Of a DNA stretch of 64,000 nucleotides, positions 7,106 to 55,015 are shown one piece after another. Position 1 is the stretch's first letter; every line of letters begins with the position of its first letter. The stretch lies in assembly GCA_000004985.1 (NCBI GenBank), contig GG738897.1, one strand, 5' to 3'. Made by a program: the position numbers and the translations under genes. The notes beneath the pieces were generated by a model, which saw only the letters and a program-made list of their open reading frames with translations, was not told where the DNA came from and did no database searches. The stretch is from Naegleria gruberi (Eukaryota).

Positions 7106-7228
7106 TTTCAAAGTTGTAGTCTATATTGATTAATAGCAAGTGTTCTATGAAATGTTCTGATTCGTGGGTCTGTTCAGGGACACTCTCTCGATATCTATTG
7201 AAAGGTTTTTTTTACAGTAAACAATTCC

Positions 7229-10718: not shown

Positions 10719-12563
10719 ATGCGACTTCCTTCTTCACACAACAATAATTATCAAGAAAATCTTTCACATGCCATCCAAGAAACTTTTAAAAAGTATAATG
10801 TACATTTAGAAATGTGTCTTGGCGATGGTTTCATCATGAATGGTTTTTTGGATTTTCTCAAGAATGAACTAAATGCCAGTTCTTTGGAATTTCTTGTTAA
10901 AATTGATGAATATTCGAATAGTCATAATTCGTCTACTTTCTATTCGAATGGCAGTAGTGTCAATAATGTAAATTCACCAGCAGGATTGCTTCCTTCAATT
11001 CAGACATCTACAACAACAATATCAACAATTAGTATTGGTTCTCCGTTGTCTCCATCAGTTTCGTCCACTAGTTTCACCTCACCAGGAAGAAAGGTTCAAA
11101 GAAAGGATTCTCTGAAGGATTTAACAGAACATAATTCAATTTTTTCACAACCCTTCAACAATAACAAGATAAGTAGAAAGGCCAAAGCTAAGGAAATTAT
11201 CGACAAATTTCTCAACGATCATTCAGCACATCAAGTCAACTTGTCCAGTCAAATAAGAGATGCTGTATTGAGAAATTATGAAAAGGAATGTTCTAGAGGA
11301 GGTGGTGAAAATGATATTAATCCACATTTATTTGATGAAGCCAGAACAGAAGTTAGTTTACAATTGAAATGCGACAGTTTCGTCAGATTTTTGAAGAGTC
11401 ATTCTTTTTTCAATTTGATTGTGAGTAAGGTAGAGAAGGAAGTTACCTCAAAGAATTTGGATGCCATTTACAAGTTTTTGAATATCTACTTTTCCAAGAT
11501 TGGAGAGACAAAGAAAAATCAAGTTTCTCAATTTATTACAAATAAGTCGAATAGAGCTCTTTCTCCTGCTTCACCTGCTTCTGGTTCTGGTTCAGGTTCT
11601 GGATCTCCATTGGGATTGGTTTCACCATTGGCTGATCTTTCAAGTGATGATGGTTCCATTGACTCGGTTGAATCAATTACTCATGTCAATCATGTTCAAA
11701 CAATGCTTTCCCTTCATACCCTTTCTCCAAATGGAATAGAAACAAAAATATTGGATAATGTTATGGATATTAGAGAAAAATTCACCAAATCTATTGCTGA
11801 ATTGGTAGATGATATTGTTACTGAGCAACAATTTGATTTACTTATCGAATTGGTCAATAACGAAAGTTTGTGGTTGAAAGTTCACGAAGATTCTGAATCC
11901 TCATGCTTTGTTTCAGAAAACAAATTCTATCACAACAGTAGAGGATTGAAAATTTATAAGGAAGTGGGAATTATTGAATCATCTCCTGAGGAAGTACTCT
12001 TTGCATTGACAGATATGAGAATCTTGAATATCATTGACGATACCATGTCCAATGTGAAATTTGAAAGATTTGTCAAAGGACCTACCTATGCAGTCAGCTA
12101 TTTGAGCAGTAAAATGAAAATGGCTTGGCCAATGAGTGATAGACAATTCCTGATTGGAACTTCCATTAGAGACGAAACATTTGATTCCTACAATGGATAT
12201 ACCATCTTGAGAAGAAGTCACGATTGCAAAGAGGTTCCACTCAGTAAGGGATGCATCAAGGGTATCTTTCTAGGAGGCGTTGTTATTGAGAAATTGAGTG
12301 AAAAACACACAAGATTCACAGCTTCAGGATTTGTTGACATGGGTGGCAAATTCCCACTTTCTCTCTTTAACAAGATTCTTTCACTAAGACAATCAAAAGG
12401 TGTTGAAAATGTCAAGAAGGGAATTTCAAAGAGAAGAAACATGCCACTTACAGAACAACAAGTCAACTCTGAAAATTCATTCTACTTGTTGGATACTCTC
12501 TTCTACTCGAGAGAACACAAAACTCAACCAAACAGTAGCAGCTCTCACACTCCTTCATTTTAA
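10719..12563 (+). CDS. RGS domain + START domain protein (paralogous in architecture to 5054..7105)
   Basis: ATG start. RGS-like segment: (AKEIIDKFLNDHS...FDEARTEVSLQLKCDSFVRFLKS). START-like segment: (KEVGIIESSPEEVLFALTDMRILNIIDD...WPMSDRQFLIGTSIRDE...GGKFPLSLFNKIL). Confidence 0.75.
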   Translation: MRLPSSHNNNYQENLSHAIQETFKKYNVHLEMCLGDGFIMNGFLDFLKNELNASSLEFLVKIDEYSNSHNSSTFYSNGSSVNNVNSPAGLLPSIQTSTTTISTISIGSPLSPSVSSTSFTSPGRKVQRKDSLKDLTEHNSIFSQPFNNNKISRKAKAKEIIDKFLNDHSAHQVNLSSQIRDAVLRNYEKECSRGGGENDINPHLFDEARTEVSLQLKCDSFVRFLKSHSFFNLIVSKVEKEVTSKNLDAIYKFLNIYFSKIGETKKNQVSQFITNKSNRALSPASPASGSGSGSGSPLGLVSPLADLSSDDGSIDSVESITHVNHVQTMLSLHTLSPNGIETKILDNVMDIREKFTKSIAELVDDIVTEQQFDLLIELVNNESLWLKVHEDSESSCFVSENKFYHNSRGLKIYKEVGIIESSPEEVLFALTDMRILNIIDDTMSNVKFERFVKGPTYAVSYLSSKMKMAWPMSDRQFLIGTSIRDETFDSYNGYTILRRSHDCKEVPLSKGCIKGIFLGGVVIEKLSEKHTRFTASGFVDMGGKFPLSLFNKILSLRQSKGVENVKKGISKRRNMPLTEQQVNSENSFYLLDTLFYSREHKTQPNSSSSHTPSF

Positions 12564-21990: not shown

Positions 21991-22283
21991 CTATTTGAAA
22001 TATTTAAGAGAAAGTAATTGAGATGCTGAAGGTCTTTGATTTGCATCTTTTTCTAACATTTTCAAAACTATTTCAATCAATTCGTCCGAATATTCGCAAT
22101 GAGCAGATTCTTTCATTTGATTCTTCAATATTTTGATTGCATTCTCCGCTTGATTTCCCATTAGCAAGTTACTAATCGAAGTTGCCAAGTCATTGGTCAT
22201 GATTTGATAAATTGAAATACCCAATGAGAAAATATCCGTATTATATGAATATGAACTTCCAAGTGCAACTTCAGGACTCATAT
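21991..22283 (-). CDS. receptor-like Ser/Thr kinase gene copy 1, exon 4 (kinase C-lobe end, stop included)
   Basis: The exon encodes ..SPEVALGSSYSYNTDIFSLGISIYQ... It joins exon 3 through a 47-nt GTAAGT..AG intron (22284-22330). Phase is consistent with ..GTPL|Y|MSPEV. Confidence 0.7.
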
Positions 22284-22330
22284 CTGAATAGTTTAGTTTA
22301 GTTTGGGTAATGAAAAATTATAATACTTAC

Positions 22331-24351
22331 AAAGTGGAGTTCCAGCATAGGATTGACCTGTCATTTCTTGATACTTTTTGGCTAATCCAAAATCTGCCAA
22401 TACAATGTCAATATTGTCGCTTGTCATTTTCTTAATAAAAATATTTGTTTGCTTAATATCTCTGTGAATAATGTGCATTTCTTCATGTACATATTTCAAT
22501 GCATTCAACATTTGTTTCAATATTTGCTTGACAATCTTTTCACTGCAATTTTCTTGTTTCAATTTTGTTAAATCTCCCAATTCAAAATAATCCATGTCAA
22601 TAATCAATAAATTGTCATTTGTAATGAAATAATCATTAATTTTGATAATATTGGAATGGTTGATATGATTCAATTGAGATGCTTCTTTCATAATTGTATT
22701 CAAATCTGTCAATGTTTCAAATTTAACAAGTTTGATTGCTTTCAATTTGTTTTTCTTTAAATCTGTCACTTTGTAAACACTTCCAAATGCTCCTTGTCCA
22801 ATTCTTGTAATGTTTGAATATCTGGAGAATGGATTTATCATATCTGAGCCAACAGAAGATCCAGCAGATGAGGAAATAATCATTGAACTAGACGAAAGGA
22901 AAGTTGTTTCGGATAATTCAACATTTCCTGTGTCCAATTTAGCAATTTCAAAGTCCTTCTTTTTCTTTTTTGAGAAACACACGACTATTACAATAATTAA
23001 TATCACAACTATTAGTAAAATCAATAAAACCCCAACAATCGGTATCACAATAGCTACTATCAAAACTGTAGAATCAATTATTGACTGACTTTTGAGTTCA
23101 CAAAATTGACCTTCAAATCCAATCTTACATTGACAAACATCAATATCAGAACATTGTCCATTTCCATTACAAACATTTTCACTTGATGCCAATGTTCCAT
23201 TACAACTCAATTTGGAATCACATGTACTATTCCAAGAATTGTAAGTGTAGTTTCTTCCACAATATGGAATAATCTTTCGAATATAAGCTCTAGCATCAAT
23301 GAAAAAGATTTCACCCGTACTTTCATCGTAATCCACTTGTCTTGCAAACGTTGAAAAGATTGAATAAGTTCCAAATCCATCTCCATTGAATTTTGGGGAT
23401 GCAACTCTTGATCCAGCAATATCCAGCAATAAACCGCTCCGTTTCTGATACATTCGAACAAGAGAAGTTCCACTACCATCCAAAATAATTATATCTCCAT
23501 TCTTTTTCACATAGAAAGCAGAGGGATTATCGATCGATGATTGGAGGGCTGGTAGTTTATCACCTGAATAGCCCTGAATTGAATTTCCAACCAAAGTTCT
23601 TAAATAATAGGTGCCTTCAGATAGTTTTTCAATTCTTCTAATGGTAGCTTGTGTACTTAAATATATGTAACCACTATCATAGAAAATATTTGATATTACA
23701 CCTGGAAATGTCACATTACTCATGATTCCATCATCAGAAATGAGACCATTGTTTGAAAATGTAATATCTATTGACATTGTTTTAGTTGTTTGGCTGTATC
23801 TGTAAATTGCTGAATCCAAGGCGATTAGCAAATCACCAGTCGTATCCTCAACTGTCAATCCATTAATTAAATTAAATTGTGGACATGGAGAATCAACTGC
23901 ATTAATTCCAGTCACGAATGATCCACACACTGTTGATCCAATAACAGTTTCATAATTCATAGTGTCTGGATCGATTCGAATAAATCTACATGTATCCTTA
24001 ATATAGATTTTTCTATCAAATTTTGAGAACACTCCTTGAGCCTTTGCGGTGCCGAGTTGTGCATTGAAAGTAAAATAGGGTGATTTAACTGAAGCAAGTG
24101 GAGTTGTTAACAGTGAGCTACTTAAGGTGGTAGACTTGCCAGTAGTTTCATCAAATTTCTTCAAAGTTCTCATATCCATATAGTAGCTCACTTTCTTTGA
24201 TGCATCTCTCATTAACATTAACGGAGTTAAAGTTCTTGAAGCTGGACTTAGTCCTGCAATTGTGGAAACTCTTCCATTCGAAATTTCACTCAAATGATAT
24301 TGGTTTGTCACAAGAATTCTGGAATCTTGTTTGACAGCTCTTGGTAAATAT
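22331..24351 (-). CDS. receptor-like Ser/Thr kinase gene copy 1, exon 3 (NHL-like repeats, EGF-like Cys module, TM helix, kinase N-lobe and catalytic loop)
   Basis: EGF-like module: CNGNGQCSDIDVCQCKIGFEGQFCE. TM segment: VLIVAIVIPIVGVLLILLIVVILIIVIVV. Kinase motifs: GQGAFGSVYKV, HRDIKQTNIFI, DFGLAKK. An upstream 66-nt GTAAGT..AG intron (24352-24417) joins it to exon 2. Confidence 0.7.
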
Positions 24352-24417
24352 CTACAGTTCCATCATTAAGGCAGGAATTATTCGAATTTTCCCGAATATT
24401 AAAAGAATTATACTTAC

Positions 24418-25509
24418 AGAGCTGAGCTTTCGACTGGAATATTCTCACCATTGAATCCATAAACATAGACGATTGTGTTTGAAACATTAAGATGATCCAA
24501 TCCTCCAATTTTCTTCAATGTAAAACTTTCTAATTGAAAATCATAAAGTTGACCCATATTAAAAAAAAACAAATTTCTATCATTTTTTTGAAATCCATTA
24601 AATGTCAAAGATGTTGGCATTGGCGTGCTGAAAACTAACATTGATCCATTCTTAAAGTCAACATACTCATACAGAGTATTCAATGAACCTGAATATAAAA
24701 ATAAGGAATTAGAATCAGGATATCTGATATTTGGAATAGCAACAATTTGATCAAGATATCCATTTGGAATTGGAATTATTAATTGGTATAAAACTGTAGA
24801 TTTTTGTAAAATACTGATTAGATACTCAGAAGTTCTTAAATAAATTGTAGAATTGTCGAAAGAATCACCAAGTACATCAATCGCACTTGAATAAATTGGA
24901 GATTTGATTATTAAAGTCAAGTTTTGAGTTTCCACATTGAAATTGTAAAGTGATGTATCTAAATTAGTGAAAATCAAAACATCACCATTTCCAATATGGA
25001 TTGAATTGGCGACTAGCATGTAAAAACGCTGTGGAATGTTGGCCGTGTATTTGATTAATCTTTCACAACCCAATAAAGTGGTCATTTTTCCATTTGAAAC
25101 CTTTCGTAAATAATATGCTCTGTCAATAAAGTACAAGTCATTCTTATAGTAGAATGGGAATAAAACACTTCCTGTTGAATACATTTGGAGAGGTGAAATG
25201 TTTTCACCATTTGGATGATTAATTATTCCACCAGATAATGTGGAAACCATCTTGGTTTGTAAATCAATCTTTCGAATACAACTATTCGATTTATCTGCCA
25301 CTATTATCGCATTCTGAGTGATAATTAAAGAAGATGGTTCATAAAACTTGGTATTTAAAGAATCGAATAATTGATTATCACCATCGTATCCTTCTGAACC
25401 TCCAATAAGGATTTTAGTTTCATCTGAATTCAACAATTTCATTTGTATGAAATTATTACTTTGAGATGAAGTGTAAATTTCACCTCCATTCGAAACATAG
25501 ATACCATAT
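24418..25509 (-). CDS. receptor-like Ser/Thr kinase gene copy 1, exon 2 (NHL-like beta-propeller repeats)
   Basis: Continuous ORF 24414..25442 extended upstream to the AG acceptor. A 43-nt intron (25510-25552) with a GTAAGTG donor separates it from exon 1. Confidence 0.65.
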
Positions 25510-25552
25510 CTTTCGTATAATTATTAAACAAATCATTCAATTATTCACTTAC

Positions 25553-26376
25553 AAATTAGATTGAGCCACTCCTCCATCCACAATTCTATACATTCCATTT
25601 CCATCAATTGACTTGACTCTTTCTGCATCTGTAAAATAGACAATATCCTTATTTCCATTAGAAACAACGAATATATTCTTTGGAGATTGTAATTTCAAAA
25701 GCTTGGCATCTACACCATCATAATCACCATTTAAATAACCACCTCCTCCAATAATGGAAGTTTGTTTTGTGGAAATTTCGTATTTCTTGATTAGATTATT
25801 ATCTGTATCTGAAATGTAGGCAAATCCATTGGAAGAAACATAAACACCTCTTGGATTATTAAACGCATGTGCTATAGATGATGTTGTTCTTGTTCTATTC
25901 GAAACTATTCTAATCTTATTATTGAGTGAATCAGCAATAAACAAATCACCATTCAATGGATTCACAGATATAGCTGTCGGTGTATTCAATAATGTACCCA
26001 CAGCCTTCAATCCATCTCCATTGAATCCAGAAGTCACATATCCTGCATAAACTTCTGCATATTTATACATGTCAAAAATCCTAAAAACTACATGTCTATC
26101 AGCATCTGCAACAAAGACATCTCCATTCAAACCAGCACTCAAACCAGTAGGAGACAACATGTAGGCATATTTAGCCTCCACAATATCAAAATTATTGTTG
26201 AAACCTTCAAGTGTCTGTGTATAATAATTGACAGGTGTTGAAGATAGCGATTCCACAACCACCACCACCCCTGTAGACAACAACGCCATGAATACAAGCG
26301 CAAGGTATAAACATTGAATCCTCCTTGTTGTGCATAACATATTCTGACATCCATTGCTCAACCCACTTGTTACCAT
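25553..26376 (-). CDS. receptor-like Ser/Thr kinase gene copy 1, exon 1 (ATG, signal peptide, NHL-like repeats)
   Basis: ATG at 26376. The signal-peptide-like segment is MLCTTRRIQCLYLALVFMALLSTGVVVVV. NHL-type repeats follow (GDVFVADADRHVVFRIFD, GDLFIADSLNNKIRIV, GFAYISDTDNNLIKKY). The four spliced exons total ~1409 aa. Confidence 0.65.
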
Positions 26377-39136: not shown

Positions 39137-39416
39137 TTATTTGAAGTAAGGCATTTGGAGAATCTGCCTTGCACTTGGACGAGTTTCCTGATTCCTGTCC
39201 AACATTTTAATCACAATTTCCATTAATTCATTCGAATATTGTTGTTCAGCTTCCATTTGCTTTGTGAGAATTGACACAGCATTTGCTGATTGATTTCCCA
39301 TCAACAAGTTTCCAATAGAAATTGTTTCATCCTTTGTCATGATCTGATAAATTGAAACTCCCAATGAGAAAATATCGGTATTGAAAGAATAACAACTTCC
39401 CAATGCAATTTCAGGA
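39137..39416 (-). CDS. receptor-like Ser/Thr kinase gene copy 2, exon 5 (kinase C-terminus, stop included)
   Basis: The exon encodes ..SPEIALGSCYSFNTDIFSLGVSIYQIM... A 50-nt GTAAGC..AG intron (39417-39466) joins it to exon 4. Confidence 0.7.
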
Positions 39417-39466
39417 CTATTTCAATATCATGGTCAATTAAGTTGTGAAATTTAACATTTGCTTAC

Positions 39467-41554
39467 CTCATAAAAAGTGGAGTTCCAGCATAGGAATGAC
39501 CTTTCATTTCTTGATGCTTTTTAGCTAAGCCAAAATCAGCCAAAACAACTTCAATATCATTTCCAGAAAGATTTCGAATAAAAATATTTGAAGGTTTGAT
39601 GTCTCTGTGAATGATTGATAATTCTGAATGGACATAGTCAAGAGCACTCAGTACTTGTTTCATTATCTTTCGAATAATATCTTCAGAACATGTTTCTTTC
39701 TTTGTAAATCTTGTCAAATCGCCATTTTCAAAATAATCCATATCCATACAAAGTAAATTATCTTTTGTAATGAAATAATCATTGATTATCAAAATATTTG
39801 GATGTCTAATATTACTAAATTGTGATGCCTCTTTCATAATCGTATTCAAATCTGTAAATGATTCAAATTTCACAAACTTGACAGCTTTGATTTTGTTTCC
39901 ACATTTGGTATCTGTCACTTTGAATACACTTCCAAATGCACCTTGTCCAATTCTGACCATATTAATATATCTTGAAAGGACATCTTCATTATCTGACACA
40001 TTGGATCCCATAGACGATGAAATAATTACAGAACTGGATGGGAAGTCTGACATTTCAACAATTGTGGCATTTGCTATTTCATTTCTCTTCACTGCCTTCT
40101 TCTTCTTCATAGATAGTAGAATGATAACCACCACAACAATTATCACTATTATTAAGCCAATTCCAACAATTGGAATCACAATTGCAACCACCAAAACAGT
40201 TGTTGATTGATCGTTGGCTAAATTATCGAGTGAAGATCTTTCACAAAATTGACCATCGAAACCAGTAATACAGTTACAAATATCCAATCCAACACAACTT
40301 CCCTTTCCATTACAACTTTTTGAATCTGAAGAACTAGTTCCATTACAAGTGATTGGTTGACATTTGTCACCATAGAAACCACTCAAGCAATCGCATGTAT
40401 TATTGAAAGAATTGAATTGTGCTCCTCCTTCACAAACAGGATATAGCTTTCTAATTAGTGAAGTTACACCATTGGTTGACACTGTTTCAAGAAAAAGAGT
40501 TTCGTCCGATTTCTCATTTACATCAATAGTATAACCAAAACCAATAAAACTTGTTTCCACTCCCTTCAGGTCTCCATTGAAATAGGTACTCTGCTCTCTT
40601 GGTTTTCCTGCAATGGTCACTAACAATCCAGTTTTTTTCACATACTTTCTAATAATATTATTACCAGAATCCAATATAATTATATCACCATTCTCTTTCA
40701 CATAAAATGACTTAATTTGAGACAATTTAGACGAAACAGCAGGTAGATTATCACCACTATATCCATCAGTCCCAGTTCCAACAATACTCTTCAAATAGAA
40801 CGAACCATTCTGAAGTCGTTCCAAAACTCGAATGGTGTTTGCTGTGCAAAAGTAATGCAGGTCATCACTAATGGAATGAGAGGAACCAATGACACCAATT
40901 CGTTTGTCATTTTCTACAATGATTCCATCTTCAGATTCGAAAGGTGAATTGAGTGGATTCCAAAAGAATACACGAATCATACCTGAACTCTTTTCAATCT
41001 TTCCAAAAAAATCTGGATAACAAATGTAAATATCGCCATTCTTGGGATTTACAGAAAGACCTTTAGTACTTTGCTTTCCCAATGGAGAATTCAAAGCTGG
41101 AATGTCAGGAATCACTGTTCCACATTCCTTTCCTGCCACTTTCTGATATTTCAATGTTTTTGGATCAATTTGAATAATTCTGCAATAATCTGCAACATAA
41201 ATCATATTATCATAGAGAGAGAATACCATTTTAACATCAACTCTTGGAAAAAGTGCAAACATAAAGGAATCTAAAAGTACTAAAGAAAAGGAAAGGAAAG
41301 GTTTGACAGCTGGCAATAGAGAGGTAATTTCACCAGTTTTCTCATCATACTTCTTCAATACATTCTTATCTATTATATAGATTAGATTTTGATTTGGATC
41401 TCTGCAAAAGGAATTCATGTCCATACCAAGTAAGTTTGAGCTAGGATTGCTGCCAACTATAGTTTTGGCAATTCCATCAACTATTGTGTAAATGTAGGAT
41501 GATACTGTCGCAATGTAAATGACTCCATTATGTGCATAAATTGAATTAATCGAC
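39467..41554 (-). CDS. receptor-like Ser/Thr kinase gene copy 2, exon 4 (NHL-like repeats, EGF-like module, TM, kinase domain)
   Basis: EGF-like module: CNGKGSCVGLDICNCITGFDGQFCE. TM segment: VLVVAIVIPIVGIGLIIVIIVVVVIIL. Kinase motifs: GQGAFGSVFKV, HRDIKPSNIFI, DFGLAKK. The ORF is open from the acceptor at 41554. A 40-nt intron (41555-41594) lies upstream. Confidence 0.7.
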
Positions 41555-41594
41555 CTTTTAAGGTTTCGAATAAAAAATTTTCAAAGAAACTTAC

Positions 41595-42650
41595 ATTGCT
41601 GATTGAGTGGCATTAACATTCTCACCACTATATCCATCAAAATCAACATAAGTTCCAGAATATGTACCTCCATCAATTCCACCAACCTTTCTTAAACTAA
41701 GATCATCCAAATTTGCTTCATAAATTCTGTAACCATTCGCAACATAAATCTTTCCATATATGGAATCATAGGCAACACGTGAAATTGAAACTGGAAATTC
41801 AATCCAGTCCGAAGATTGATTTTTCCATTCCACTTTTATAAGTATTCCAGATGAAATATAATATAAAGTATTGTTTAGGATGGAAAACTCATTTACACTG
41901 TACTCAATCTTACTTGAATCTTGTAAAGTTTCGTTTTGATATTTGTAAATGCCATCTGAACTCACAAATCCAATGTACATTGTGCCATTATCAAAGGAAT
42001 TTCCAAAACCAGTAATAGAGCTAATTGGATTACTGTAATTAATTTGGAAATATCTCATCCTTAATGTATCCAAATTAAGAACGTGTAAATCGTGGTATCC
42101 AGAAATAACCAAATCTCCATTTGGAAAGCAAAATAAACTTAAAATTGATTTGAAAGTTCTCGTTGGTGAAGTTTCTGTTTTCAATTTTGAACTCACTCCA
42201 AAGACAGTCTTGATTAGTCCATCTATTTTCGAAACCTTTCTAATAATCAAATGTTGTTCCACAAAATAAAGTTCATCATTATATATGAATGGTTTGTACA
42301 ATACATTGACTTGTGAAATCTCAAATCTTGGCAAGTCCTCTCCATAGGGATGATTAATGAATCCACCACTGAATGTTGACACAATCTTATTGGAAACATC
42401 AATCTTTCGAATACAATTATTGGATTTGTCCACAAGATAGACCATTGTATTTTTCACAATCAAAGAACCAGGTTCATAAAATCGAACATTCGAATAAGAA
42501 TTAACTAAATCATCTCCTTCATATCCAAACGAATCTTTTTCACCAATTATTGTTTTGGTTGAACTATCAATTAAAGAATTCATTTGTAGAAAATGTGAAT
42601 TGGACGACGAGGTCCAAATTTCATTATTGGACGAAACAAATATTCCATTT
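41595..42650 (-). CDS. receptor-like Ser/Thr kinase gene copy 2, exon 3 (NHL-like repeats)
   Basis: ORF 41591..42583 extended upstream to the ..tattag acceptor. It is homologous to exon 2 of copy 1 (YGIYVSNGGEIYTSSQSNNFIQMKLLNSD vs NGIFVSSNNEIWTSSSNSHFLQMNSLIDS). Confidence 0.65.
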
Positions 42651-42673
42651 CTAATAATTATGGGATAGTCAAT

Positions 42674-44412
42674 GTGGTAGACTTAAACAGAAAGTTCATT
42701 TTCTGAATCAGCAAAGGACCTTCTTATCCAGCAAAGGCCCCTCTCATCCAGCAAGTCACCAACCAATAAAACACCGAATAATGCTTTTTCAGCAAATAAC
42801 TCCTTCTTAATTTCATAAATTACTGATTTAGCAAAGCTTTCTTAATTATCCAAAGATTTGTTCCATTGCAGCAAATTCAATAAAGAAGAATATAAAGTGC
42901 TGATTTATTCTAAACCTGATTATTACGGATTAACAACTTTTATATATTTTGATGTATACATATTATAGTTGCTGTTACTATTAACTTAAGCATTGTGGCT
43001 TCAAGTTGGCAAACTGTAACAACAATCTAAGGACGTGAAAAATATTCAAAAGTGTATTCTTCATAACAAAACATAATCTAAATTAGTATCAACATCTTTA
43101 TTTGAGTTGTTTTATTTGCCATGTGATCCGACTATAAAAGTGACTGTATATGAAGAATCCACCTTAATTTGTAATTTTTTGTTCTGCAACAGCAAATCAA
43201 CGGAAAATATTAATGAAAAGACATCATGTACTAATTTACTATGTTATTTGATGAAATCAAGTGGAGAATGCATAAAACAGATTTTGATACAAGAAAACAC
43301 AATGATGATAATAAAAATATAATTTTATTTAATTATTGAAATAATTCAAGGTGGAAAATCAGCAAGATTTCCGACCTTGAAATTTACCTTGTTGGAAAAT
43401 TCACCATTAGTGAATTTTATTGATGGTTCGATGATGATGACCATTAAGATATTTACCATAATGATCGGAAATGAACTTGTTGATGATATTGATGATAAAA
43501 GATATGATGAAGAGAAAATTCCACAACTCTATGAATACTAAGTGGAAAAATTCCAACTCTCTTGATGGTGATATTAGACATCCCTACTAATGATACTATG
43601 TTGTTGAAATTCTATCATCATGATGAAAATATATGGTGAATGATGAATACACCACCAACAAGGTAAAAACTCAAAATATCCAAAAACTATTATTCGGAGT
43701 GTTGTTGATGATGTATTTGAATAGTACTATTCGAAGAAAGTTTGGAAGATGATGAAGTACATGTTGAGTTATTGCATATGTATAATTTCAAAATATACAT
43801 GAAGCAAACTTGATGAAATGAGAAGATGAATTCCTGCTATTGATACTGGTGATACTATAGAGTATTGCCAACAATCCCTAATTGAAGAAATTCCTAATGA
43901 ACAAGTAAATCTGCTGATGAGGATGATATTATGTGAAATTTGAAATTTCACCCAATAACAAGTACTAACAGAGACTCCACTTGCTTAAATTACTATTAAT
44001 ACAATAATAAATATACTGTGATGATGAACTCCGGCTTAATGATGATGTTTGGAAGTGTGAAATTTCCGATGATAGAAAACCACTATAATTCATTCCGAGA
44101 AGAAGCACCACCATAAAATATTACTATTATTACTATTGGTGAGATGTAGCCCAGCCACTATAATTGAAGTATTCCAAAATGATGATGAGTTGATTGAAAT
44201 AAATACCAGTGATGATGTAGAGGTATTTTTTTTACTTTCTTCAATTGCTAAATGGGAACAATTTCGTGGCTTATTCAGTAAAATTTTGCCAATTTACTGT
44301 TTATTTGCTGATTAAGTATGCGCGGATTCAGTAAAAATGATAAGCACATGGCTTGCTGAAACAGACCATCCTTTGCTGTTTTTTTTGAAAAATTTGCTGA
44401 AAAAGTACTACG
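42674..44412. mobile_element. ~1.74-kb non-autonomous DNA-transposon-like insertion inside intron 2 of kinase copy 2, flanked by a 9-bp direct repeat ATAGTCAAT (plus strand) and carrying subterminal inverted CAGCAAAGG repeats
   Basis: The homologous intron in copy 1 is 43 nt; here it is ~1.8 kb (42651-44450). ATAGTCAAT occurs at ~42665-42673 and ~44413-44421. The left end has CAGCAAAGGACC / CAGCAAAGGCCC / CAGCAAGTC at 20-bp spacing plus further CAGCAAA copies. The right end has the reverse-complement CCTTTGCTG / TTGCTGA copies. There is no long ORF. The interior holds a TGATGA-rich degenerate repeat (~43380-44230) and repeated CACTATAATT..ATTCC units. Confidence 0.45.
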
Positions 44413-44450
44413 CATAGTCAATTAGTTTGAGTTTCTGAAAAAACACTTAC

Positions 44451-44709
44451 AACTTGGTTTCAAGTTCTGAAATTGCTATCCTTCGATATTTACCATTCTT
44501 ATCAATGGATTTGACTCTTTCGTCATCTGTGAAATAAACAGTGTCATCTTTCCCATTCGAAACTACATGAATATTCTTTGGAGATCGAAGAATTATTGAA
44601 TTGGCCTCAACATTATCGTACGATCCATCTAGATATCCATTTCCACCAGCGATTGTTGTCAAAATCTTGCTGCCAATGTCATATTTCTTTATCACGTTAT
44701 TTCCAGAAT
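44451..44709 (-). CDS. receptor-like Ser/Thr kinase gene copy 2, exon 2
   Basis: The exon lies between a 42-nt GTAAGT..AG intron (44710-44751) and a GTAAGTG donor at 44450. It encodes DSGNNVIKKYDIGSKILTTIAGGNGYLDGSYDNV..., which are NHL-like repeats. Confidence 0.65.
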
Positions 44710-44751
44710 CTTTTGACATGTTTCAAAGAAATTTAGAAATATTTAACTTAC

Positions 44752-45310
44752 CTGCAATGTAGAGTATGTTATTATTGGAAACATACACTCCCAATGGTTT
44801 GTTGAATGCAAAAGGTAGAGAAGAAACCAAATTCGTCTCAGCAGAAACTAGACGAATCTTATCATTATTCGTGTCAGCAATCCACAAATCACCATTAATC
44901 GCCACACTCAACGAAGAAGGTGAATTAAACAAGGTTTGTTTCACATCATATCCATCCTGATTAAAACCAAGTCCTAACCCTCCAAAAACAATCATACTTT
45001 CGTTTGGAAAAATCTTGAAAATTAATCCTCTCACACAATCAGACACGAAAATTTCATCATTATTTCCAGAGCAGATGCCACATGGAGCTTTTAGAAAGGC
45101 ATGTTTGGCAGTGAATGTTCTGTCAACATCTTGACCATTGCCTTTGTATCCTGTTAGTGTTTGTAGTTGGTAAGTTTCGGCTGCTTTAGTTTGAAAGAAT
45201 TTGTCTGAACTGCTTTGAAAGAGAAGAAACAGTAAACAGAGCAGTATCATCAATGTGTTTAGTTGCATTTTTTTGAAAAGTTTCTCCTTGTTGACAATCC
45301 TGACACACAT
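44752..45310 (-). CDS. receptor-like Ser/Thr kinase gene copy 2, exon 1 (signal peptide, NHL-like repeats)
   Basis: The ORF track starts at TTG (45361). In-frame ATGs lie at 45310 and 45268; the latter begins the signal-peptide-like MQLNTLMILLCLLFLLF. The exon ends with ..YIAG|GTAAGT. Confidence 0.6.
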
Positions 45311-46299: not shown

Positions 46300-48810
46300 C
46301 TACTTTTTAATGGTCAATGGATCATAATCTGGATTCAATGAGCTTCCACAAGTAGCCACTTTTCCAAAATAGGAAAATTCAGAACTAGCCATTCCAGGAA
46401 TCATCAAATCATCACTTTTTACAACTTGAATCGTATCAACATGGAAAGTTCTCAATATTGTTGATGGTTCTGTCAAACTAAATCTCAACTTTTTGAGTGA
46501 AAATGAACTTGTTGTAAACTCAGAAATTGGAATTCTTACTCGTGCTGTTGTATTGTCAATCTTGTAATTTAAAACGTGCTCCTTCTTTACAATTACTTGT
46601 TTACCGAAAGCAGTTACTGAAATATTGAGTGGTCCATAATTATCTGAAACTCTAACAAAGAATTCGAAATGAGAATAGGCAGCACCGCTCAAACCATTAG
46701 TTCTTTCAAGATAGACATCACCACTTCCCATAATCATCTTGATTGCATTACCACATAATCCTCCTTCTCCATTAACTTCATAGGAAGCATCTCCATTTCC
46801 AGTAACAGTCGAGAATGAATTCAAATTGTCTGTGAAGAAGGCATTTCCAAAAGTTCCGTAATTGACACATGAATCTGTGGCATTGGCTATTGGAGGAGGT
46901 AAGGCACATGTCGAAGTAGTCGAATTACTGCAATATAATTGAGCTCTCAAATGTCCAGTTGGATTTTGAGTGGTTGACAATTTGACAAACATTTGACCTT
47001 TCAATAGAGCTACTTGTTCTTGATAAGATAAATCAAGGAGGAAACGACTGACACCATAAGGGGATATTGGATTATCCAATCCTGGATGGATAATTCTCTC
47101 TTGAGTACCGACAGCTCCAATTCCAACTGAAATTTCAGTGGCGATTAAATTCAAATTGTGGAAAACTGTGAAATCTAAAAGTTTTGCTTTGAAATCCCAA
47201 AATGCAAAGACTTTTCCTGAGCCATTTGAGCCAATGAGGGATGAGTTGACTGCTTTTTGTTGGCAGACTTCTAAATTTCCAACAAATCGATCTTCCTTCA
47301 TTAAGGTATTGTAAACTAATTTGGAAGAAGTTGGATTACCAAATTTAGATGGAGCACAGTTATTGTTTGGACAAGTTGCAACAATTCTAATCAAACCAAC
47401 ACTATGATAATCAGAAAATGGGTAAACATTCTCAAAATCATCTCTTGGCACTCTATTTTGTAACTTGACATATAAATGCTCAGTTGTCTGATTGTAATAT
47501 GCCAATTCATTTGGTGAAACCATGACCTCAGCCAATGAACTTGCCCAAGTCACAGGATACGTATTCGAACTTCCACTTTCTGACCAAGTTATCTTGAAAT
47601 CTGTCTTATTTGGATACTGAATTGCCAACACAATCCAATCATAGTTGACTGCATTTTTCAAGCTGACGGACAAATCTCTCGGAGTTGGATGATCATTTGG
47701 CCATCTCAGTCCATAAAATCCTCTATTAAGCAAGTTATATTGTATTACCCATGTGTTATCATTACCTCCTGGGCTTCCATTGGATGGTCCTTGAATATTT
47801 CTCAATTGGTCAACCACGTACATTCTTGGTGTGATGATATTTGCGTTTTTCAATTCAGGTTGTGCAACTCCTTTGGATGAGGTAGTATTGTATGTTGTAA
47901 ACTCGTTATTTCCGACCCTGAGTTGAACGAACATTTCACCAGTTGCGGGACAACCATAAGCACTCCAATCACTATTCGAAACACAACCAGAAAAGGCGTT
48001 CAATGGATCTTGACCAACAATCCAACCTCCACTTGGAAAACCACTAATACTTCCATCCAAATCTGCCCAAATTCCCATTCTCTGGTTATCATATGGAGTA
48101 TTATTCAAGGCATAGAACTTGTTAGAATTAATAAAGGTCAACCCAAAGAGTTTGTTAACTGCTGATTCCAATTGTTTACGAGAACGATGAGAAACTGCAC
48201 CAGAGGCCTTATATGCATCTGGAATAAAGTTAATAAATGTGCAATTGTAAAGTAATTGAGGACCGTCGTCTTCATAAACTTCGTAACCACGAATGATCAA
48301 CTCATCACTTGCATAGAGTTGAGGACGAGTTCTACCACCAACGTCAACCTTTGATCTGAAACTTGAATCGCCTACATTAGAGGTCTCACCAATCATGATA
48401 GAGTTTCTTGTAATAGTTGGTCCCTTTGGTGCAGTAATTTGTACGTTATTGTCAAATGCCAAAAAGTTTTCCAAATAAAGAACTCCTCCCTTAACCCAAG
48501 CTCCATAATCTCTATTCTTGTAAGCAGTAAAACGGAAGAATGAAGCTGACCCATTCAATGGGTAGTATCCCTCAGTTTCTAATGTACCATCAGAAAGCAA
48601 CATTTCATCAATCCACAATCCAGTAATTGAGCTGTGAGCAACGTTATCTTCGAATGGAGCCATTGCTGTTCTTCTTGGATTGAAATCTTGACCTGCATAG
48701 ATGGTAGCACTCATTCCAACAGGGAAAACTGGGAAAGAGAGCCAGAATCCGAACTTACCACCCACAGCAACGTTTCCAATAAAGGTATTGTTTGGCTTTT
48801 TTATGGTTGA
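46300..48810 (-). CDS. large secreted parallel beta-helix (PbH1) repeat protein, exon 3 (CEMIP/TMEM2-like)
   Basis: 837 codons are open from the acceptor at 48810. The exon is joined to exon 2 by an unusually short 31-nt GTAAGT..TTTTAG intron (48811-48841), phase 0. Confidence 0.6.
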   Translation of the reverse strand, partial: STIKKPNNTFIGNVAVGGKFGFWLSFPVFPVGMSATIYAGQDFNPRRTAMAPFEDNVAHSSITGLWIDEMLLSDGTLETEGYYPLNGSASFFRFTAYKNRDYGAWVKGGVLYLENFLAFDNNVQITAPKGPTITRNSIMIGETSNVGDSSFRSKVDVGGRTRPQLYASDELIIRGYEVYEDDGPQLLYNCTFINFIPDAYKASGAVSHRSRKQLESAVNKLFGLTFINSNKFYALNNTPYDNQRMGIWADLDGSISGFPSGGWIVGQDPLNAFSGCVSNSDWSAYGCPATGEMFVQLRVGNNEFTTYNTTSSKGVAQPELKNANIITPRMYVVDQLRNIQGPSNGSPGGNDNTWVIQYNLLNRGFYGLRWPNDHPTPRDLSVSLKNAVNYDWIVLAIQYPNKTDFKITWSESGSSNTYPVTWASSLAEVMVSPNELAYYNQTTEHLYVKLQNRVPRDDFENVYPFSDYHSVGLIRIVATCPNNNCAPSKFGNPTSSKLVYNTLMKEDRFVGNLEVCQQKAVNSSLIGSNGSGKVFAFWDFKAKLLDFTVFHNLNLIATEISVGIGAVGTQERIIHPGLDNPISPYGVSRFLLDLSYQEQVALLKGQMFVKLSTTQNPTGHLRAQLYCSNSTTSTCALPPPIANATDSCVNYGTFGNAFFTDNLNSFSTVTGNGDASYEVNGEGGLCGNAIKMIMGSGDVYLERTNGLSGAAYSHFEFFVRVSDNYGPLNISVTAFGKQVIVKKEHVLNYKIDNTTARVRIPISEFTTSSFSLKKLRFSLTEPSTILRTFHVDTIQVVKSDDLMIPGMASSEFSYFGKVATCGSSLNPDYDPLTIKK

Positions 48811-49161: not shown

Positions 49162-49223
49162 CTAAATATGAATAAACATTTAGATTTAGAGTTGAAATTA
49201 ACTGGAAATTATTCGAAACTTAC

Positions 49224-50172
49224 CTTTTTGACCAACATTTCTCAACTCAACTCCAACAAACTGAAATTGCTTAACCAATCTAACAATCAAATGAGATCCA
49301 AAACTGGATGCATCACTTGAATCATCTCCCTTAAACACAATTCTTCTGGTCAACAATGCAACTTCTGAAAATGTGTAATCTTTACCAACGTGTGTGAAAT
49401 TTAGCGGACTTTCCAATGTCAATGTCAAACCATCAGCTGAAATTGCCTTAATAGTAGCTTTTTCATTTTGATCTGGAAAAGCAACACCTCTTTGCCAATT
49501 TCTGGAAGTGTCATTCATTATCTTGAAATCAACAACTTCACCATAATCAGTTGAAGTTAGCAAAATGTCATCGCCAACACTCCACATGCCAGTGACAGAT
49601 TCTTTCAATGTGATAGAGCTGGTATTCTTGAGTGCAGTAGCATTAAGACGTGTCCATGCCTTATCATTAATCAATTGTCCAACAACTTGAACAGTGGCAC
49701 CTGTCAAAAATGCAATTCCCTTATTTCCTAAATTAGCATTATCATATGGATCAGTACCAAGTGTATTTTCAGTAGATCTAGGACCATAAAATGTAATGGT
49801 AATCTTCTTATAGATAGGACATGAAGTACTTCCCATAATAAACGAAGCATTTCCTTCAACTCTAATGTGATTGACGTTAATATTCATGAATTTGTTGTCA
49901 AAGATTAAAGATCCACCACTTTGGACTGTGATTGAGCCATACTTGACTGGTGGGGAGGTTTTGATTAATACTTTCTGACCTGAAGTGATTACAATGGCAG
50001 ATTCAGCGACTGTGTAATTAGAAAGTGAACTAAAGTCGACTAAACCTGATTGACCGTAAGGACATGCTTGACCATTGGCAAAACCAAACCAACACGCGCT
50101 AATAACAAGAAGCGATGCTAATAAAGCTAGTAATTTCATTTTTTTTACAATGATAAGCTCTTCAAGTTCCAT
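49224..50172 (-). CDS. secreted PbH1-repeat protein, exon 1 (signal peptide, G8-like N-terminal domain)
   Basis: ATG at 50172. The signal peptide is MKLLALLASLLVISA. A Gly-rich beta region resembling a G8 domain follows. Confidence 0.55.
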
Positions 50173-50674: not shown

Positions 50675-51826
50675 TTGAGAAGAAGTGGAAAGACACTCTT
50701 TCTTCAAACCTTGTGTCCTGATACAGTTTTATATAAAGATTTATTAGAATCTGTGAGTGGGAAAGTATTGCAACATATTCTGAAAGCAATGATGATTCAT
50801 AATGTTGAGGAAAAATTATTAGAATTGATGAAAATTGTGAAAATGTTTGATGAGGATGGAGAGAAAATTTCCAAGAATTTGCAAACTTTTGTTGAATTGT
50901 ACGTGAGAAGTAATTCATTACCTGCTGAGAGACCTATTTCTTTTGTGGAATTATTGTTGGATTTGTGGAAGTTTCGAATATTTGCAGAGTTTTATTATGA
51001 GAATATGGATAGATTTTATTTTAATGAAAATTTGGAATTGTTTGTTGACAAGATGAGAATGCATCGAGAGGATGGAATACTTTTTGATCCACTTCGAATA
51101 ATTTCAAAGGAAACTCTTGGATTTACAGCAGCTGTCAAGAAATTGGATAACAATTCCATTACTATAATTGAAAATAGAGGAACAAGACCTGATACAAATC
51201 TGAATGCCAAAAAGGTATTAGTGTTAACTGTTTCCCTGGTAGATTGCATGATTTCTGTAAAGGATGAAAGCAATTTACTGAACTTGACAACATTCACTTC
51301 ATATCCAAACTCCAAATTCGATTCTGCACTTTCCTTCTTTGAAGATATTGCCAAAAGCAGAGCATTGAAAGATTTCCAACAAAACACTCGTGTCTGTATC
51401 CTCTTTACAAAAGCAGATTTACTAATGAAACGATTGGAAAAATTCGAAACCTTTCCACGACATGAAAAGGAAGAATGTAAAACAATCCAGAGAAATGAAA
51501 TTTCAAATTTGAGAAATTTCTTCATGGAACGAAATGTCATTAATTATGTAGTGAATGAATTTTATGAAATTTTACGGAAATCTGGAATGGAAAGTATTGA
51601 ATTTGATTATCACATTATTAATGCATTGAATGAGGAGGAAGTGAATCGTGCATTTGAACTCATTGTAAAACCACTCAATCAACGAGGAGTTTCGAAACAT
51701 TATCTTTCTCCATGCCTTTACAGACCTTTAGAATACATTCCAATACAATTGTACAATAATCTTAACAATCAATACCTCACTGATGTTGTCATTATTACAA
51801 ATCCATCAAGAAACCAATCATTCTAA
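50675..51826 (+). CDS. degenerate G-protein alpha-subunit-like (pseudo-GTPase) protein; the N-terminus appears frameshifted
   Basis: The in-frame upstream extension reads ..ERILLVGLRRSGKTLFLQ, a P-loop GxxxxGKT (compare LLLLGAGESGKST). NTRVCILFTKADLL stands in place of the NKxD motif. The DVGGQ switch II is replaced by ENRGTRPD. An MGQTQHTA... ORF from ATG 50538 is in a different frame and stops at 50678. Confidence 0.5.
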   Translation: MRRSGKTLFLQTLCPDTVLYKDLLESVSGKVLQHILKAMMIHNVEEKLLELMKIVKMFDEDGEKISKNLQTFVELYVRSNSLPAERPISFVELLLDLWKFRIFAEFYYENMDRFYFNENLELFVDKMRMHREDGILFDPLRIISKETLGFTAAVKKLDNNSITIIENRGTRPDTNLNAKKVLVLTVSLVDCMISVKDESNLLNLTTFTSYPNSKFDSALSFFEDIAKSRALKDFQQNTRVCILFTKADLLMKRLEKFETFPRHEKEECKTIQRNEISNLRNFFMERNVINYVVNEFYEILRKSGMESIEFDYHIINALNEEEVNRAFELIVKPLNQRGVSKHYLSPCLYRPLEYIPIQLYNNLNNQYLTDVVIITNPSRNQSF

Positions 51827-52314: not shown

Positions 52315-53244
52315 ATGGTCGCTTACTTTGCTTCATTAGCTTCGTTAGATAACAATTTCGAAGATTTACGACCACGTAGACCTACCAAGGTTTCTCCCAG
52401 ATCTTCCACAAGCTCTTCTCCAAGAAATAATGCTGGGGAACATTCGCCAACGAGCCAAGATTCGTCCGACATTCTTCAACTTTCTCCAACAACAAGTATG
52501 ACGAAATTACCAGTAGAAAGGACTCGTTCACATTCGAATAGTGGTAACAGTACCTATTCTTCATCTTCAGTTTCGTCGAGTGGGTCTCAGAGTGTTAGAC
52601 GAAACTCACCATTAGAAAGTCCACAACCTCTGGAAAGGTCGATTCGTGAAATGGCAAGAAATTATGTGATCAATATTGAAAAGTTCCTGTCTACCAATAA
52701 TCATGATGAAAATGAGAGCTTTTCAGAGTTTCTCAAGTCTGAATGTAATTTGGCCCCTTTAGAATTTTATCAGAAAGTAACCGAATTCACGACTAAACCG
52801 GAAAAGAAGGAATTGGCACGTTATTTGATAAAGAATTATATCAAGGAAAGAAGTAATAGTGAAATTAATATTGCAAATAATGTGAGAGAAGTCATTTTGA
52901 AGGAATATAAGGAATGCAAGCACAACAATAGTCAAGTTTCGTCTAATATTTTCGAAAAGGCCTGTAATGAAGTTAAACTGTCGCTCAAGAATGACAGTTT
53001 CACAAGATTTGTTGCCAGTGAACAATTCAGCAAGTTAATTTTGAAGAAATTCAATCAAGCAAACAAATCACTAGATTCGAATAATTCTACAGAAATATTG
53101 GAATCCATTTTCGAATCAATTGGTTCTCTCTCCCCACTTTCCTCTCCTAAATTCTCTGCTCATTCTCATCCTCAAAATATTGTAAACAAATCTTTGGATA
53201 CTATTGCAAACTCTCAAATTATTGTAACTCCTCCAAATGAGTAA
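52315..53244 (+). CDS. RGS-domain protein with a Ser-rich N-terminus
   Basis: ATG start. The RGS-like segment is (ERSIREMARNYVINIEKFL...LEFYQKVTEF...ARYLIKNYI...FEKACNEVKLSLKNDSFTRFVASEQF). Confidence 0.7.
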   Translation: MVAYFASLASLDNNFEDLRPRRPTKVSPRSSTSSSPRNNAGEHSPTSQDSSDILQLSPTTSMTKLPVERTRSHSNSGNSTYSSSSVSSSGSQSVRRNSPLESPQPLERSIREMARNYVINIEKFLSTNNHDENESFSEFLKSECNLAPLEFYQKVTEFTTKPEKKELARYLIKNYIKERSNSEINIANNVREVILKEYKECKHNNSQVSSNIFEKACNEVKLSLKNDSFTRFVASEQFSKLILKKFNQANKSLDSNNSTEILESIFESIGSLSPLSSPKFSAHSHPQNIVNKSLDTIANSQIIVTPPNE

Positions 53245-53836: not shown

Positions 53837-55015
53837 ATGTCCTCCATCACACAACGGGAAGCACCACCTTACACTAGAATTCAATATGTTTCGCTTTCAA
53901 CTCTTGGGGTCATCACGGAAAAGATGAAGACTAAGATATTAACAGTGGCTACTAAGGAAAATTCCAAGCACAATATTACTGGAGTTTTGATTTGTGTGAG
54001 GGATATGTTCTTTCAGATTATTGAAGGAAAGACTGCTGATATTGAACAATTATTTGCAAATATTGTCAATGATTCGAGACATAATAATGTTGCATGTGTC
54101 GACAAGTCGTATTTTGAAAGTGAGGATGATAGAATGTTTCCTTCGTGGGATATGAAATCAATTGAGGTTGATTGTTTGTTTCCTACCAAGAAGGATGTAT
54201 TGATTTGTGGGGAAAATTGTAATCCACTCGATCCAACTCATAAGAGAGTTATTGAGACTGCATTCTCTGCTTTTACAACAATGATGGGAAGTATGTTCAG
54301 AGCTCAACAAGTGTTCAAGAATTATGCCCAACCAAGTGTAACCAAATTTGTTAGGGATGGATTGAATCCTCTCTGTATTCAATCTGTTGTTACGGAAAAG
54401 ATTGTAGTTTTTATTGACCTTGTAAATTATACCACCTTGACAGAAATCATTTCTCAATCGAGAAGCGTTGCAGAAATTGTAAGAATTCTCAACTTGTTCT
54501 TTGCCTGCGTTATGGAAATTGTCGAAGAGCACGGTGGAGACATTACCAAGTTGATTGGTGACTGTGTAATGTGTCATTTTGATGGGAAAGATTCACAAAA
54601 GGCCATTGATTGTTCGTTGAAAATATTGGAACGATTAGACCATCTCAGATATGAAACAACAGATCCATTCGAAAAGCTCATCTACTGTACAATAGGAATC
54701 TCGAAGGGTGAGGTCATTTTGGGAAATGTTGGCACAGTTGGAAGAAAGCTTGACTATACAGTCATTGGTGATTCAGTAAACACATCAGCAAGATTACAAT
54801 CCTTTGCCTCCACTACTCAATACTATCTCATTTTCGATGAGAATGTAAAGAATGATTTGATTAATGAAGATTATGTAATATCGTGTGGTTCGATTGAATT
54901 GAAAGGAAAGAGAAATACAGTCAATGCCTACACAATAGAGAATGTATATAATAGAAAACCTCAGAAAGAAGATTTGAATGGTCTTTTCAATGTGTGTTCT
55001 TTATCAATATTGTAA
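53837..55015 (+). CDS. BLUF domain + class III adenylyl/guanylyl cyclase (photoactivated adenylyl cyclase-type protein)
   Basis: N-terminal BLUF signature: YTRIQYVSLS...NITGVLICVRDMFFQIIEGK...NDSRHNNVACVD...FPSWDM. C-terminal cyclase homology domain: VVFIDLVNYTTL...HGGDITKLIGDCVMCHF...IGISKGEVILGNVGTVGRKLDYTVIGDSVNTSARLQS. Confidence 0.85.
   Translation: MSSITQREAPPYTRIQYVSLSTLGVITEKMKTKILTVATKENSKHNITGVLICVRDMFFQIIEGKTADIEQLFANIVNDSRHNNVACVDKSYFESEDDRMFPSWDMKSIEVDCLFPTKKDVLICGENCNPLDPTHKRVIETAFSAFTTMMGSMFRAQQVFKNYAQPSVTKFVRDGLNPLCIQSVVTEKIVVFIDLVNYTTLTEIISQSRSVAEIVRILNLFFACVMEIVEEHGGDITKLIGDCVMCHFDGKDSQKAIDCSLKILERLDHLRYETTDPFEKLIYCTIGISKGEVILGNVGTVGRKLDYTVIGDSVNTSARLQSFASTTQYYLIFDENVKNDLINEDYVISCGSIELKGKRNTVNAYTIENVYNRKPQKEDLNGLFNVCSLSIL

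Follow-up and report, generated by a model that had tools for sequence, protein, structure and literature searches.

Why does an intron that is 43 nt long in one kinase gene of Naegleria gruberi run to 1800 nt in its paralog? Both genes lie on the minus strand of a 64,000-nt stretch of contig GG738897.1 (assembly GCA_000004985.1), referred to below as the window, and both encode NHL repeats, an EGF domain, a transmembrane (TM) segment and a kinase domain; the gene with the long intron is here called copy 2 and its in-window paralog copy 1. A sequence-only reading of the window had proposed that a transposon-like, non-autonomous insertion expanded the intron of copy 2. Our analysis agrees, in that mirror-image ends abut a perfect direct repeat, the DNA between them has no coding capacity, a 51-nt empty site remains when it is taken out, and the intron of copy 1 is short. 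Because the ends abut a perfect 9-bp repeat, because nothing is encoded between them and because removal restores an intron of the usual size, we consider it probable that positions 42674–44413 represent a non-autonomous, class II cut-and-paste DNA transposon of the terminal inverted repeat (TIR) type, located in a pre-existing intron of ~51 nt.

Boundaries and mirror-image ends of the insert

The intron, its comparator and the features that delimit the insert are as follows.

42651–44450, minus strand: intron 2 of copy 2, 1800 nt, with donor GTAAGT at 44450 and acceptor TTATTAG ending at 42651
25510–25552, minus strand: homologous intron of copy 1 (comparator), 43 nt, at the same position and codon phase (TT|A)
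42665–42673: left-hand ATAGTCAAT, one of two 9-bp direct repeats that form a putative target-site duplication
44414–44422: right-hand ATAGTCAAT, the other of these 9-bp repeats
42674–44413: inserted element, 1740 bp, noncoding; putative non-autonomous TIR DNA transposon

Both intron lengths given by the sequence-only reading were verified, and the two introns share position and phase. Intron 2 of copy 2 is ~35–45 times as long as the others that were measured (40–50 nt); in the related N. lovaniensis, the median intron is 80 bp (PMC6125883). Taking out the insert and one copy of the repeat leaves an intron of 51 nt, whose predicted empty-site sequence on the host strand is GTAAGTGTTTTTTCAGAAACTCAAACTAATTGACTATCCCATAATTATTAG. 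Since the paralog intron shares position and codon phase, and since a 51-nt empty site is normal for this gene, the insertion appears to have hit a short intron that was already present.

ATAGTCAAT is present exactly twice in the window, and the bases next to its two copies differ on both sides, so that the repeat is exactly 9 bp long. The earlier claim that a 9-bp direct repeat bounds the insert is therefore upheld, with no third copy in the window; of the extent first given (~42674–44412), the start stands and the end is corrected to 44413. The same two boundaries are marked a second time by short CAG(C/A)AA boxes.

42674–42757, plus strand: left composite end, starting GTGGTAGACTT
42688, 42709, 42729 and 42749, plus strand: left-end boxes CAGAAAG, CAGCAAAGG, CAGCAAAGG and CAGCAAG, starting 15, 36, 56 and 76 nt from the end
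44350–44413, minus strand: right composite end, its reverse complement starting GCGTAGTACTT; mirrors the left end
44399, 44378 and 44358, reverse complement: right-end boxes CAGCAAA, CAGCAAAGG and CAGCAAG, starting 15, 36 and 56 nt from the end
42790–43366, plus strand: left-arm boxes in the same orientation, CAGCAAA/G at 42790, 42869, 43190 and 43360, and TAGCAAAG at 42829
44276–44335: right subterminal zone, where CAGTAAA/CAGCAAA variants face either way, at 44276 (plus), 44299 (minus), 44310 (minus) and 44329 (plus)

The boxes stand 15, 36 and 56 nt inward from both boundaries set by the 9-bp repeat, in inverted orientation. The array of CAGCAAG-type units described previously at one end, with further CAGCAAA copies inward, was recovered at 42688–42757 and from 42790 onward, and the reverse-complement units described at the other end proved to lie at distances equal to those on the left. 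All three occurrences of CAGCAAAGG in the window fall in the element ends. The element accounts for 2.7% of the window and holds 11 of its 29 CAGCAAR sites (binomial 1.3e-10), and box pairs at 20–21-nt spacing number four in the window against 0.06 expected, solely at the two element ends. The tandem repeat program TRF reports the left array with a period of 20 and 2.3 copies.

An ungapped comparison of the left end with the reverse-complemented right end gives 36 identities in 64 positions (56%), with conservation concentrated in the boxes. The alignable inverted similarity stops after ~61 nt, within which the three phased boxes lie. To locate the best inverted register, each boundary was shifted by up to 40 nt and the ungapped inverted match was scored. 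The best register is 0, that is, the boundary given by the 9-bp repeat, and the next best is ±20, the box period. Random placements yielded 17.5 ± 3.7 matches, and 36 matches were reached by 2 of 200,000. One pair of boundaries is thus marked twice, by the direct repeat and by the inverted ends, and the decisive evidence is the mirroring of the ends in exact register with the repeat rather than the 9-mer alone.

Several observations weigh against the transposon interpretation. The 9-mer alone is weak, as within this window 3.2% of random 60-mer pairs at a distance of 1.74 kb have a word of at least 9 nt in common. With AT at either end of ATAGTCAAT, the duplication is also readable as 7 or 5 bp. 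Without gaps, the two ends match at 7 of their 14 outermost positions, and an end identity of 56% is far under that of typical young TIR elements. Only a single copy is seen: BLASTN with a word size of 7 detected no second one in the 64-kb window. Lastly, a survey of Mutator-like elements (MULEs) and its supplements contain no MULE from Naegleria (PMC6446971). Chance, which the sequence-only reading had itself named as the alternative source of the repeat, would produce the 9-mer alone about 3% of the time, but inverted ends in its register were matched only in the 2 of 200,000 placements given above. The ends align best at the boundary set by the repeat but form no clean terminal inverted repeat. 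Because the outermost 14 nt match at half of their positions, TIR here denotes composite subterminal repeats; allowing two compensating 1-nt gaps, the outermost ends align as GTGGTAG-ACTT versus GCG-TAGTACTT, with 9 of 12 positions identical.

The length of the duplication permits three readings, each with its own element termini.

Duplication of 9 bp: element ends G[T/C]G...
Duplication of 7 bp (TAGTCAA): element ends TG...CA
Duplication of 5 bp (AGTCA): element ends ATG...

When both ends are extended into ATAGTCAAT by 1 or 2 nt, the inverted score of 36 becomes 37 or 38, respectively. We prefer the 9-bp reading, which needs no coincidence; any superfamily call made from duplication length is nevertheless weakened, because this single copy fits all three. 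That the duplication is perfect in intron DNA under no constraint, while the ends are only 56% identical, suggests a fairly recent rather than an ancient insertion, with ends that are imperfect by nature and not through decay.

Alternative origins, the interior and the search for relatives

Under the transposon interpretation, a DDE transposase supplied by an autonomous relative elsewhere would bind the phased boxes, which are natural candidates for its binding sites; their 20–21-bp spacing, approximately two helical turns, would align the sites along the same helical face. The bound transposase would then pair both ends, excise the element and integrate it at a 9-bp staggered cut, the repair of which would yield the ATAGTCAAT duplication. 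The 9-bp duplication and the composite, sub-repeat-bearing ends make a Mutator/Foldback-like element of the MULE superfamily the most likely family by analogy, and we offer this as a lead to membership.

A TIR DNA transposon from outside Mutator, which is possible if doubtful, would leave this mechanism unchanged and alter only the label. The candidates are Merlin, with duplications of 8–9 bp, hAT, with 8 bp plus one coincidental base and Ac/Ds-like subterminal repeats, P, with 7–8 bp, or a family that makes 5-bp duplications. The ambiguity of the duplication leaves room for them, given that the rising inverted score permits a 7- or 5-bp reading. The element also carries several short subterminal boxes in both orientations, and multiple short subterminal boxes are typical of hAT, P and CACTA ends. 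Many MULEs, moreover, start with GGG or GAG, unlike the G[T/C]G termini found here. Against such an assignment, the repeat is exactly 9 bp with mismatched neighbors on both sides, the mirror register agrees with a 9-bp duplication without requiring any indel, and the element displays neither the YARNG termini of hAT nor the CATG termini of P. hAT as a specific candidate does not fit the length of the duplication, as the repeat is 9 bp, its symmetric alternatives are 7 or 5 bp, and an 8-bp reading requires a 1-nt register shift between the two ends.

We regard it as quite unlikely that the segment was never mobile and instead reflects an old long intron, or one-off filler or duplicated DNA from break repair, with repeat and symmetry arising by coincidence or local duplication. 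The single copy in the window, the ~3% chance of the 9-mer alone, the low end identity and an interior without known resemblance are all compatible with such an origin. It does not account for inverted identity in the register of the repeat at a level that random placements so rarely match, for phased box pairs confined to the two ends, or for box distances of 15, 36 and 56 nt that are equal at both; in addition, the remaining introns of copy 2 and the paralog intron are all 40–50 nt long.

Still less probable is a solo long terminal repeat (LTR) or other retroelement remnant under the 7-bp reading. The TG...CA ends which that reading creates and a noncoding segment of 1.7 kb would suit an LTR. 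LTR integrases, however, produce 4–6-bp duplications, a range that excludes both 7 and 9 bp, and mirror ends of 60 nt with three phased boxes are atypical of LTRs. Neither poly(A) nor a 3′ simple repeat lies beside the duplication, and Pfam and protein searches recovered no remnants of reverse transcriptase, gag or integrase.

The interior of the element is noncoding. The longest open stretch is 81 codons, in agreement with the initial observation that there is no open reading frame (ORF) of transposase size. A scan of codon-usage log-odds, trained on the window's own long ORFs, identified no sustained coding frame in the element; the same scan is positive throughout host exon 3. Searches with translations of its frames +1 and −0 yielded nothing significant in Pfam (one match at E=0.43), and a search of 5.8 billion protein sequences gave no homolog at E≤10; Rfam returned no family at threshold. 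A decayed transposase or captured host gene was rejected on the combination of no significant Pfam match, no protein at E≤10 and no sustained coding frame. Frames +1 and −0 of the element contain fewer stops than expected. The segment at 43074–43541 (plus strand, frame +1) spans ~156 codons with one stop, where ~13 are expected at this composition; it has no ATG-initiated ORF of eukaryotic style, no Pfam match and no homolog, and either decay of a former coding sequence or the GATGAT-rich composition itself may account for its scarcity of stops.

One further region stands out in the interior.

43249–44215, plus strand: TGATGA-rich core, strand-asymmetric, with 19 TGATGA versus 1 TCATCA

The bias of the core toward the plus strand extends to ACTAT (12 versus 2) and ATTCC (6 versus 0). 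Its motifs occur in mixed phases, with a single CTGA, and TRF detects no tandem array in the element interior. The degenerate, TGATGA-rich character attributed to the interior is accordingly correct, but the recurring CACTATAATT..ATTCC units also described there are thin: the CACTATAATT unit occurs exactly twice, and only two exact copies of CCACTATAATT are present. A plus-strand cluster of intron-hosted C/D-box small nucleolar RNAs (snoRNAs) or other noncoding RNAs as the cause of the intron length, to which the 19 C-box-like TGATGA motifs on one strand and a weak SNORD104-like Rfam match at 43879–43945 (plus strand, 22.5 bits, E=0.018) might point, can be dismissed as the least probable origin of all, since the entire core has one CTGA (D box), the SNORD104-like match lacks a proper D box and falls far short of the gathering score of 40, the plus strand is antisense to the host gene, and the mirror ends and duplication would be left unexplained. 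In a cluster of this type, C (RUGAUGA) and D (CUGA) boxes would be paired at distances of ~60–100 nt.

Relatives of the element were sought outside its own sequence. No transposase was found among the ORFs of the window. Pattern scans for the three-box or two-box signature gave one match in JGI metagenome contigs, in a Bacteroidetes-like coding region, one in GTDB prokaryotic genomes, in a metagenome-assembled genome of Mycobacterium, and 25 single viral matches in IMG/VR, all of which were taken as chance; BLASTN of the element against the retrieved loci showed nothing similar outside the seeded boxes. A literature search, limited to one library, retrieved no description of the element itself and no MULE or Merlin family in Naegleria. 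Kolobok has been recorded from Naegleria, but with TTAA duplications (PMC9587614).

The host gene and its neighborhood

A scripted splice model of copy 2 gives a protein of 1399 amino acids with an uninterrupted reading frame, encoded by five exons.

45268–44752, minus strand: exon 1, with the start codon, signal-peptide-like N-terminus and first NHL repeats; missing from P0001
44709–44451, minus strand: exon 2; missing from P0001
42650–41595, minus strand: exon 3
41554–39467, minus strand: exon 4
39416–39137, minus strand: exon 5, stop included
39137–42650, minus strand: exons 3–5 together, encoding NHL repeats, EGF, TM segment and kinase domain; P0001 is 100% identical here

The introns between these exons measure 42, 1800, 40 and 50 nt. 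Pfam identifies NHL, EGF and Pkinase domains in the product, the kinase domain being C-terminal; a transmembrane stretch is present, and the N-terminus is hydrophobic and resembles a signal peptide. The best protein match is P0001 (predicted protein [Naegleria gruberi]), with 100% identity over 80% of the model. P0001 is 1118 amino acids long and begins at an internal ATG at 42583, and it therefore lacks the 281 N-terminal residues of the model, which correspond to exons 1–2 together with 22 codons at the start of exon 3 and include the signal-peptide-like start. A protein search with the gene model retrieved no separate deposited protein for exons 1–2. The truncation of P0001 is likely due to the 1.8-kb intron, which the gene predictor would have failed to bridge in a genome where other introns are 40–80 nt. 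In practical terms, a deposited N. gruberi protein thus seems to be missing its N-terminus.

That exons 1–2 belong to copy 2, and that the inferred junction is exact, follows from P0002, an N. gruberi paralog on another scaffold, which aligns without gaps over residues 92–355 of the model (66% identity) and thereby spans the junctions of exon 2 with exon 1 and with exon 3. Over the whole model, P0002 is 49% identical across 93%, and it is the more similar overall to copy 2. The gene of copy 1 (~26310–21994, minus strand) shares 38–63% amino acid identity with copy 2. Copies 1 (21994–26310) and 2 (39137–45268) have the same NHL-EGF-TM-kinase architecture on the same strand, with 13 kb between them. 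Intron 1 of copy 2 (44710–44751, minus strand, 42 nt) has no counterpart in copy 1, where the homologous region (25585–26310, minus strand) is one continuous frame; this difference between the tandem paralogs is an intron gain or loss.

The position of the insert relative to the splice signals makes mis-splicing into the element plausible from the sequence. On the host strand, the GTAAGT donor and the branch-point-like CTAAT/TTGAC are still adjacent after insertion, and the first AGs downstream of the donor are now element-derived, lying 43 and 54 nt after GTAAGT, the usual intron length here. These AGs, in the right end of the element (44397–44408, minus strand) directly after CTAAT/TTGAC, are candidate cryptic acceptors. 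Use of the AG at 43 nt would add ~45 element codons followed by a stop, in the frame of the minus-strand ORF at 44275–44421. The two ends of the element could also pair in the pre-mRNA, with a duplex energy of −54 kcal/mol versus −36 ± 4.6 kcal/mol for shuffles, as inverted repeats would give. Long-range pairing of the ends as an aid to splicing was rejected, the gain of cofolding over separate folding being not significant (−12.2 versus −9.1 ± 3.2).

A more far-reaching account would combine these observations. In it, the element is a member of a family so far undescribed and possibly restricted to Naegleria, recently active in strain NEG-M, with a transposase that recognizes three CAGCAAAGG-type boxes per end two helical turns apart, and its insertion has split a receptor-kinase gene by mis-splicing, such that exons 1–2 with the signal peptide are cut off and the rest corresponds to P0001. 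Recent activity in NEG-M is suggested by the perfect duplication; taken as a whole, we consider this account improbable.

To our knowledge, few genetic tools exist for Naegleria, and if this account is true, an intact autonomous partner would be an endogenous mobile element for these organisms. The locus also offers a case for asking how an organism with short introns splices, or fails to splice, one of ~40 times the length. Naegleria genomes are gene-dense and transposon-poor (in N. lovaniensis, repeats make up 3.4% and DNA transposons 1.25%; PMC6125883), so that an apparently young insertion with defined ends provides a handle to its family and its transposase.

Other large ORFs of the window are ordinary genes (tubulin, RGS, serpin, ankyrin, WD40, CEMIP/G8-like, G-alpha and BLUF-cyclase). 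Directly upstream of copy 2, large ORFs at 46300–48765 and 49198–50172 (both minus strand) encode CEMIP beta-helix/domain X and G8 and are probably exons of a single gene. Three ORFs with an RGS domain, one of them also with START, and a G-alpha-like ORF lie within the 64 kb (5054–7111, minus strand; 10719–12563, 52315–53244 and 50675–51826, plus strand). The ORF at 53837–55015 (plus strand) has a BLUF domain at its N-terminus and an adenylate/guanylate cyclase domain at its C-terminus, as in a photoactivated cyclase.

Comparison with known systems

Eukaryotic introns are commonly inflated by transposon insertions, and the element in copy 2 is a further instance of this well-known type of event, unsurprising in kind. 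Its closest likeness is to the Mutator/Foldback-like elements, which include Tm1 of Meloidogyne (in the Phantom subclass of MULEs) and FB of Drosophila. These share with it, under its preferred reading, a 9-bp duplication, ends built of short repeated units and outermost bases that are poorly inverted, and their members of ~1–2 kb are noncoding and mobilized in trans; the element is likewise noncoding, at 1740 bp. In Meloidogyne, the Mutator/Foldback element Tm1 has 9-bp duplications, composite ends of short tandem sub-repeats and asymmetric outermost motifs, with noncoding members of ~1 kb and TIR pairs that average 93% identity (PMC3169594). The element departs from Tm1 in having three to four boxes per end at 20–21-nt spacing with non-repeated spacers, as opposed to long contiguous 14-bp tandem arrays, and in the 56% identity of its ends compared with ~93%. 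Duplications of MULEs are 8–11 bp, commonly 9, and their TIRs, often long or composite, are 14–500 bp (PMC6446971, PMC3169594); the duplication, if read as 9 bp, and the end length of the element fall within these ranges, which makes it compatible with MULEs in a manner that is not specific to them. Rehavkus, a sister or outgroup of the MULEs, also has a 9-bp duplication, with TIRs of 26–400 bp, and is tied to minisatellite-like internal repeats (PMC6446971), which calls to mind the degenerate, repeat-like TGATGA core. In contrast, Rehavkus has been described from arthropods and annelids and carries its minisatellite within the ORF of a PHD-finger transposase, toward the C-terminus, whereas the element has neither an ORF nor an array detected by TRF.

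Non-autonomous elements of the Ac/Ds type (hAT) and the En/Spm type (CACTA), which have subterminal repeats bound by transposase, resemble it in a different respect, namely a short motif crowded into the subterminal few hundred base pairs, mostly directed inward with a few copies reversed. Their duplications of 8 bp (hAT) or 3 bp (CACTA) differ from the 9 bp seen here, and the termini of the element are not YARNG or CACTA. Merlin, whose duplications are 8–9 bp and whose transposase is IS1016-like, can be compared with the element by duplication length alone, and the two are compatible. The Mutator-like or Merlin-like label put forward in the sequence-only reading, which draws on that length, is accordingly a reasonable lead rather than an established assignment. 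Introners, as found in Micromonas, Aureococcus and others, are like the element in that a DNA transposon makes up most of the length of the intron. Unlike introners, which this insertion otherwise recalls, the element brings no donor–acceptor pair of its own and has expanded an existing intron, to which the host contributes both splice sites.

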